The translations under genes were made by a program, and so were the position numbers. The notes beneath the pieces were generated by a model that was not told the DNA's origin, did not search any database, and saw only the letters and a list, made by a program, of their open reading frames with translations. A stretch of 18,303 nt of DNA, from the NCBI RefSeq assembly GCF_003334815.1, contig NZ_QOWO01000054.1; one strand, written 5' to 3'. Positions 17,077 through 17,177 of this stretch are shown piece by piece; position 1 is the stretch's first letter, and each line of letters begins with the position of its first letter. This DNA is from Escherichia coli. Lineage in GTDB: Bacteria; Pseudomonadota; Gammaproteobacteria; Enterobacterales; Enterobacteriaceae.

Positions 17077-17100
17077 ATTTTGTGATTTATTTCACAAAAT
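17077..17100. promoter_or_regulatory. Perfect CRP-type palindrome (TGTGA-N6-TCACA) upstream of the nuclease gene
   Basis: ATTTTGTGA-TTTATT-TCACAAAAT; both half-sites match the CRP consensus and the flanks are AT-rich and symmetric. Centred about 90 bp upstream of the nuc start codon. Confidence 0.4.
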
Positions 17101-17177
17101 AAGGTGTTATTCATTGTGTGCTGCAATGTTCAGGATGCCTGAAATACAGGTGCCATTTATCTGATATGGAGAATAAC

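Follow-up and report, generated by a model that had tools for sequence, protein, structure and literature searches.

A CRP-type operator between the antisense RNA AS-pc02 and a nuclease gene at the distal end of an IncF transfer region

The window, i.e., the whole stretch of Escherichia coli DNA that was analysed (18,303 nucleotides), is the distal end of an IncF transfer region and is 99.7% identical to the E. coli plasmid CP099216.1 (IncFIA/IncFII). Its genes and the inverted repeat under study are arranged as follows.

7693-9924, traD
9924-15218, traI
15158-15802, a DUF2726 ORF inserted between traI and traX and overlapping both gene ends
up to 16530, traX
16720-16932, plus strand, a 70-aa ORF of the ANR family (AraC negative regulator; NCBIfam NF033650, 33.5 bits against a cut-off of 32)
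16829-17014, minus strand, the antisense RNA AS-pc02 (Rfam RF02876, 'Antisense to pHK01_099'; 181.9 bits, gathering score 40)
17076-17101, strand-neutral, the inverted repeat TATTTTGTGA-TTTATT-TCACAAAATA with perfect 10-bp arms and a 6-bp spacer
17081-17096, strand-neutral, the CRP core TGTGA-N6-TCACA with its dyad centre at 17088.5
17178-17639, plus strand, nuc, an annotated ORF of the SNase/thermonuclease family (Pfam PF00565, E = 7.6e-31)
17685-17893, a frameshifted hha/rmoA-like gene
17931-18303, a second DUF2726 ORF, located after the hha-like gene and running off the window end

The ANR ORF, which is annotated as ANR family in CP099216.1, is the sense target of AS-pc02, and the antisense RNA overlaps its 3' half. 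The Rfam match is full length (model positions 1-185). Since AS-pc02 lies on the minus strand, the palindrome sits between two diverging units, AS-pc02 and nuc. The latter starts with an ATG at 17178-17180 preceded by the ribosome-binding site GGAGAA (17168-17173), and its N-terminus reads as hydrophobic and signal-peptide-like (MMKYIPLVLFIFSWPVLSA/D). The dyad centre is located 89.5 bp upstream of this ATG. A literature search on the IncF nuclease (yigB, staphylococcal nuclease) gave nothing relevant.

The surroundings showed further peculiarities. The finO gene is missing from the interval 16531-16719 between traX and the ANR ORF; no FinO match was obtained in the window by tblastn, and homology to finO-positive plasmids resumes at 16582, directly after the place of the finO stop codon. 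A survey (PMC5102898) of F-like plasmids found F itself to be the only classical group A member that was not finO-positive. With finO missing, this backbone may be naturally derepressed for transfer or may use another control. In the hha/rmoA-like gene, an A-run at about 17749-17754 has lost 1 bp (five A versus six in plasmid p666), which splits the gene into two overlapping ORFs (17685-17828 and 17705-17893), and CP099216.1 has no annotation there. This frameshift reflects either a pseudogene or a homopolymer sequencing error.

A preliminary description of this DNA reported a palindrome with perfect TGTGA and TCACA half-sites at 6-bp spacing, which is present exactly as claimed. It was first given as ATTTTGTGA (17077-17085), TTTATT (17086-17091), and TCACAAAAT (17092-17100), and the local sequence around it reads ...GATTTTATATTTTGTGATTTATTTCACAAAATAAGG... 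in the window. An extra pair, T17076:A17101, extends the arms to 17076-17085 and 17092-17101, giving 10 pairs in the fold. The exact TGTGA-N6-TCACA core occurs once in the 18.3-kb window against 0.03 copies expected from dinucleotide-preserving shuffles, and it was found in 5 of 200 shuffled windows. No second copy of the 22-mer TTTTGTGA-N6-TCACAAAA was detected in the window even when up to 3 mismatches were allowed. As RNA, the palindrome folds with -10 kcal/mol on the plus strand (z -3.8) and -9.1 kcal/mol on the minus strand (z -6.5). Its stem is A/U-rich and is followed by no U-tract or T-run on either strand, so that an intrinsic terminator was ruled out.

The dyad contains the CRP-type bases G17082 and C17095, as read from the sequence. 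A G:C pair at these positions separates CRP sites from FNR sites (TTGAT-N4-ATCAA), and both an FNR site and a CRP-S site were ruled out by the wrong discriminating bases. To score the site, a position weight matrix (PWM) was built from 95 chromosomal CRP sites that were bound in the ChIP-seq of Haycocks et al. 2015 (PMC4287617). The window site scored 16.4 bits and ranked 13th against these 95, i.e., in the top 14% (training median 12.9, maximum 21.4), and the next best match within the window reached 11.6 bits. Haycocks et al. (PLoS Pathog, PMC4287617) screened the plasmids p666 and p948 of ETEC H10407 with a CRP matrix and examined every plasmid match scoring above 10 by EMSA. The top entry of their S1 Table, ttttgtgaaattaatcacaaaa (score 13.78), has ETEC_p666_0090 as its target and was bound in vitro. 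We located this 22-mer at 4264-4285 of p666 (NC_017722.1), 89.5 bp 5' of the thermonuclease ATG; it is hence the orthologous locus, with the same distance to nuc and the same flanks as in the window. Its spacer is TTAATT versus TTTATT in the window, leaving 21 of 22 bases identical, and the window allele scores slightly higher on the PWM (15.3 bits were obtained for p666). The window allele is carried exactly by pEntH10407, another sequenced version of this ETEC plasmid. The two plasmid regions differ in that p666 has both finO and the module that precedes a PIN-domain gene, which are missing from the window. The p666 paralogue before this PIN-domain gene (TATGA...TCACA) has one core mismatch and 10.6 bits, and it was EMSA-negative (PMC4287617); the PWM thus follows the experiment.

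The reading of the palindrome as a CRP-type site was therefore borne out by its perfect core, its score, and the EMSA-positive p666 orthologue. Binding of CRP in vitro by the window's own site is predicted from this orthologue with near certainty, and the window allele is predicted to be a genuine, high-affinity, standard cAMP-CRP operator. The CRP-binding character of the locus is already published as a row of a supplementary table, in which neither the nuclease nor AS-pc02 is mentioned, and the accompanying paper (PMC4287617) discusses neither the gene nor the antisense RNA and promoter geometry. The published result on the orthologue makes a further experiment on CRP binding unnecessary.

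Occupancy in the cell is a separate matter. No CRP ChIP-seq signal was obtained on any ETEC plasmid from cells grown in M9-fructose to the mid-log phase, and all five EMSA-positive plasmid sites, including that of ETEC_p666_0090, were occupied by H-NS in vivo (PMC4287617). The p666 orthologue is a strong CRP target that was masked in vivo under the single condition tested. The GC content of the window is 31-38% over 17000-17250 versus 55-66% (about 60%) in the tra genes. The whole nuc locus is AT-rich, and its p666 counterpart is H-NS-bound. It was also observed that nuc is flanked by genes of two small-protein kinds known to act on H-NS, namely the ANR family and the Hha family.

Promoter elements were then sought on the nuc strand, for which two candidates are listed below.

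17074-17079, plus strand, the -10-like hexamer TATATT, the best on this strand; its TSS at about 17086 would lie inside the CRP site, with CRP at about +2.5
17122-17130, plus strand, a weak extended -10-like element TGc-AATGTT (TGc-AATATT in most alleles); CRP would lie at about -48.5, which is not canonical

For activation of nuc, a class II arrangement needs a TSS at about 17130 (-10 at 17118-17123) and a class I arrangement one at about 17150 (-10 at 17138-17143); the positions used for this class test put the CRP centre near -41.5, -61.5, -72.5, -82.5, or -92.5. The consensus scan found no plus-strand promoter between the palindrome and nuc. Sigma-70 scoring of the nuc strand gave no -10 at class I or class II distance from the CRP site; the required places held no hexamer combining A at -11 with T at -7. 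Both methods agree with the preliminary description, which had seen no convincing -10/-35 downstream of the palindrome. The -10 candidates of this strand instead put CRP at +2.5, -18.5, about -45 to -49, or about -63.5. All 13 nuc-module alleles have TATATT unchanged, but this hexamer is absent from the two other module types described below (PIN and F-like), and its -35 partner is poor (TTTTCC). At the 17122-17130 element, (A)AT(A/G)TTCA is kept in the alignments of all module types, and CRP reportedly does not activate from a position near -48.5 in classical spacing studies. An overlapping segment at 17125-17132, AATGTTCA (AATATTCA in most alleles), is kept in the nuc, PIN, and F-like modules despite their diverged surroundings. 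Its distance from the palindrome centre is fixed at 36.5 bp in the nuc and PIN modules and is 7-8 bp longer in the F-like ones. The AATATT within it is its own reverse complement, and it may be a weak -10 element.

On the opposite strand, the following elements were found between the palindrome and AS-pc02.

17097-17070, minus strand, a promoter-like TTGTGA-16-TAAAAT with a predicted TSS at about 17063, which would put the CRP centre at -25.5
17066-17080, minus strand, an A/T tract AAAATATAAAATCAC, which may be an UP element (about -52 to -38 relative to the predicted promoter)
17058-17063, minus strand, the -35-like hexamer TTAATA of the predicted AS-pc02 promoter; the nuc, PIN, and F-like modules all share plus-strand GTATTAAG unchanged
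17035-17043, minus strand, the extended -10-like element TGc-TACTCA, separated from the -35-like hexamer by 17 bp; predicted TSS 17027-17029
17006-17028, minus strand, a conserved stem-loop starting at the predicted TSS (-12.5 to -13.8 kcal/mol)

The pair TTGTGA-16-TAAAAT came from the consensus scan and is not conserved among alleles or module types; it was hence ranked below the conserved pair TTAATA/TGcTACTCA. Around the -10 region of the conserved pair, TGTGnTAnTnA on the minus strand is invariant in 13 of 13 sequences, although the proposed -10 itself, TACTCA, is without the usual T at -7. Across 17029-17076, 15 of the 19 columns invariant in the 13 sequences fall in the two promoter motifs (hypergeometric P = 3e-5, which is indicative only, since the motifs were defined after the alignment had been viewed). 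In the PIN and F-like modules, both sides of the stem at 17006-17028 have changed in ways that preserve its pairing, and the antisense RNA probably carries this stem-loop at its 5' end. The CRP dyad and the -35-like hexamer are separated by the tract AAAATATAAAAT, at the place expected for an UP element. From the predicted minus-strand TSS, the CRP dyad is centred at -60.5 (range -59.5 to -61.5), which is a class I position.

The conserved promoter-like pair together with the stem-loop (17006-17063, minus strand) points to a primary 5' end of AS-pc02 near 17028. The Rfam model starts at 17014, i.e., 14 nt downstream of the TSS that we predict from the conserved promoter and hairpin, and a start at that place would put CRP at -74.5, off-phase. 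The hexamer CATACT at 17022-17017 was considered as the -10 of a start at 17014 and was rejected; it leaves only 2 nt (17016-17015) before the start, has no -35, and is located in the hairpin loop. No published TSS for the locus was found in the literature. The plasmid pSLT, for which dRNA-seq data exist, has no such module, and its finO is followed by a nuclease of the phospholipase-D type; a conjugation transcriptome (NAR 2025) mapped promoters of the leading region only; and a paper on sRNAs of OMVs detected AS-pc02 by PCR only. With respect to AS-pc02 of pHK01 (RF02876), the window holds a full-length copy (182 bits) directly adjoining the palindrome, and a literature search that did not include the original pHK01 paper found no published link between AS-pc02 and CRP. 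Judged from these distances, the position of the palindrome appears to fit the control of AS-pc02 better than that of nuc.

Three module types (nuc, PIN, and F-like) were compared. Their minus strands read as follows.

nuc module, minus strand: CTTAATAC-GGAAAAAACTC-TGTGCTACTCA-GAACTG-hairpin
PIN module, minus strand: CTTAATAC-AGCAATAATCC-TGTGATAATGA-ATGCTG-hairpin
F-like module, minus strand: CTTAATAC-ACATATGGCTA-TGTGTTACTAA-AAACG-hairpin

The -35 TTAATA, the 17-bp spacer with TGn-TAnTnA, and the stem-loop are kept across the three types, and the sequence between these blocks has diverged. The distance from the palindrome to the minus-strand promoter is identical in all three, while the downstream cargo gene differs. 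In p666, the stretch of ANR gene, AS-pc02, and palindrome is present twice, once before the PIN gene and once before nuc, and Rfam accordingly reports two AS-pc02 copies, one per module. The two copies are strongly homologous only as far as a few bases beyond the palindrome. Because the palindrome also precedes the unrelated PIN-domain gene, at the same place in the duplicated module, it travels with the module and not with nuc. This duplication occupies 4260-6180 of p666 (NC_017722.1), where the ANR ORF of the nuc-side copy is shortened to 63 aa; in pEntH10407, which comes from the same ETEC strain lineage, the module is present only as the nuc copy. In the PIN copy, the CRP site is dead and the extended -10 (TGtGATAAT) is near consensus, whereas in the nuc copy the CRP site is strong and the -10 weak. 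This contrast gives a hint of an activator-dependent promoter in the nuc copy. Since the PIN and F-like modules keep the promoter without a functional CRP site, a CRP input would be specific to one lineage at best.

Other nuc lineages were examined in the same way. No CRP site above 8 bits was found within 400 bp 5' of the nuc homologues on IncX1, IncX3, IncX4, IncI2, and IncK2 plasmids, and the homologue on a Klebsiella electrica plasmid likewise had nothing above 8 bits within 400 bp upstream; these homologues share 53-61% identity. The F-like nuc lineage (81-84% identical) has only a degenerate remnant, TGT(C/T)GAATTGATCACA, of 3.5-7.9 bits. A CRP site as a general feature of plasmid nuc genes was thereby ruled out. 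A weak CRP-like sequence, TGCGTGAAGTATCACA (7.7 bits), was observed at 1103-1118 of L011 (IncK2 plasmid CP088639.1), 90.5 bp 5' of a nuc homologue on an unrelated backbone; this spacing is nearly the same as the 89.5 bp of the window, which is probably a coincidence.

Within the nuc module, the palindrome holds the same position relative to the nuc ATG in every allele. Among 9 nuc-module alleles, variable columns numbered 1 of 18 in the arms, 2 of 6 in the spacer, and 26 of 137 in the flanks, and the comparison of arms with flanks is underpowered (Fisher p = 0.20). When 4 more divergent alleles were added to make a set of 13, the left arm was invariant and the right core was intact in 11, with TTTATT, TTAATT, and TTAGTT as spacers; the right half-site is damaged in the remaining two, L020 (TTACA) and L027 (TCAAA). 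The 61 bp around the palindrome were found in 3,654 of 72,556 PLSDB plasmids, mostly at 93-98% identity.

The preliminary description had proposed cAMP-CRP control of nuc, and this was not supported. No -10 lies at class I or class II distance, other nuc lineages are without the CRP site while the palindrome travels with the upstream module, and the ETEC plasmids showed no CRP ChIP-seq signal, their EMSA-positive sites being H-NS-occupied (PMC4287617). The present analysis adds a testable proposal, namely that the site is part of the ANR/AS-pc02 module and lies at class I distance from the conserved, predicted promoter of the RNA.

A close parallel is PestA2, one of the five EMSA-positive plasmid sites and the promoter of the ETEC heat-stable toxin gene (PMC4287617), which is CRP-activated in the class I manner with CRP at -59.5 and an adjacent UP element, and at which H-NS blocks CRP. 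Both loci have a strong CRP site in AT-rich plasmid DNA, H-NS cover, and no CRP in ChIP-seq. The CRP position of -59.5 at PestA2 compares with the predicted -59.5 to -61.5 here, and an A/T tract lies between CRP and the -35 in each case; by this analogy, the tract at 17066-17080 may act as an UP element. For PestA2, measurements exist of the TSS, the footprint, transcription in vitro, and the dependence on crp, whereas the promoter and TSS here are predictions; the product is a toxin mRNA there and would be an antisense RNA here. The CRP site at the traJ promoter of F-like plasmids is likewise an input of host cAMP-CRP into an IncF plasmid. This locus is a different one, outside the window, and its sequence matches far less well (11.1 versus 13.78 in S1 Table); on p666 it, too, was EMSA-positive and H-NS-covered (PMC4287617).

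Taken together, the reading that we tentatively favor, at somewhat less than an even chance, is that the palindrome is a CRP operator in H-NS-silenced IncF DNA that most likely serves as a class I activator site for AS-pc02 when H-NS is relieved. The operator would lie in AT-rich, H-NS-silenced intergenic DNA after the IncF transfer genes, between AS-pc02 and nuc. Upon relief of H-NS, bound CRP would activate the predicted AS-pc02 promoter (-35 TTAATA, 17 bp, TGc-TACTCA), and the A/T tract between the dyad and the -35 could provide a docking place for the alpha-CTD of RNA polymerase, as in PestA2. If CRP acts at the AS-pc02 promoter, nuc would, if affected at all, be either repressed or reached indirectly by way of the ANR/AS-pc02 pair or of H-NS remodelling. 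A wider version, which we consider unlikely though by no means negligible, takes the operator as a carbon-status input to a plasmid circuit that modulates H-NS together with AS-pc02 and the ANR protein. CRP would activate AS-pc02 from the class I position, and AS-pc02 would tune the ANR-family protein encoded opposite; proteins of this family antagonise H-NS and AraC-type regulators, and H-NS would in turn gate the access of CRP. In such a circuit, nuc and the hha-like gene would respond only secondarily, and the module would have been duplicated before different cargo (nuc and PIN), trading CRP dependence against core-promoter strength.

The main alternative to activation of AS-pc02 is that the site is latent, i.e., that it binds CRP in vitro without a role in vivo. 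It would then be a relic, or would have arisen from the symmetry and AT richness of an H-NS-coated region, and would travel as a passenger on a highly successful plasmid backbone. We give this a minority chance that deserves to be taken seriously. It is consistent with the missing CRP ChIP-seq signal and the H-NS occupancy of the orthologue, with arms that are not significantly more conserved than the flanks (p = 0.20), with natural alleles whose half-sites are broken, and with the degenerate site of the PIN and F-like modules. Most of the approximately 3,650 copies are, moreover, near-identical by descent, so that the copy number says little about selection. However, a perfect dyad with 10-bp arms that falls in the top 14% of real CRP sites is expected only 0.03 times per window, and among the 13 alleles the spacer varies, whereas the left arm never changes and 11 retain the right core. 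PestA2, which is also masked by H-NS, works as a CRP target once H-NS is relieved (PMC4287617). We regard it as quite unlikely that CRP instead acts as a repressor of overlapping promoters, namely that of TATATT (plus strand, TSS at about 17086) and/or the minus-strand TTGTGA-16-TAAAAT. Bound CRP would occlude both, and high cAMP would then shut off nuc and/or a longer antisense transcript. These two are the top-scoring candidates on their respective strands, CRP is centred at +2.5 and -25.5 from their starts, and TATATT is invariant in the 13 nuc-module alleles. AT-rich DNA is nevertheless full of promoter-like hexamers (the consensus scan gave 1 versus 1.8 in shuffles), the minus-strand TAAAAT is lost in alleles L018, L024, and L025, neither element is retained in the PIN or F-like modules, and TATATT has only TTTTCC as its -35.

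Direct class I or class II activation of nuc by cAMP-CRP, by which nuclease output would follow carbon status, was judged improbable and is the reading least consistent with the geometry and the comparative data. The site is strong and lies 89.5 bp 5' of the nuc ATG in every nuc-module allele, and it is established that CRP-dependent promoters often have poor core elements. Against this, no usable -10 is present at 17118-17123 or 17138-17143, and the nearest candidates are without A at -11 or place CRP at about -45 to -49 or about -63.5. The site is, furthermore, associated with the upstream module rather than with nuc and is missing from other nuc lineages, and its orthologue showed no CRP occupancy in vivo. 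Lastly, the palindrome could be an RNA hairpin, in the nuc 5' UTR or in an antisense precursor, or the operator of another dimeric protein, which appears highly improbable. Its folds are stable on both strands, and the natural variants TTACA and TCATA of TCACA keep G-U pairs in the plus-strand RNA. On the other hand, no U-tract follows on either strand, TCAAA in L027 and the F-like variants break the pairing, and no known transcript covers the palindrome. The orthologue was bound by CRP experimentally, and G17082 and C17095 are CRP-specific.

The link to nuclease expression is the weakest part of the finding, and among the candidate targets AS-pc02 has the better position. A site active in vivo would give host cAMP-CRP a second entry into IncF plasmids, in addition to traJ. 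The region affected is found in approximately 5% of the sequenced plasmids in PLSDB, and it lies beside a secreted nuclease and two small H-NS modulator genes.
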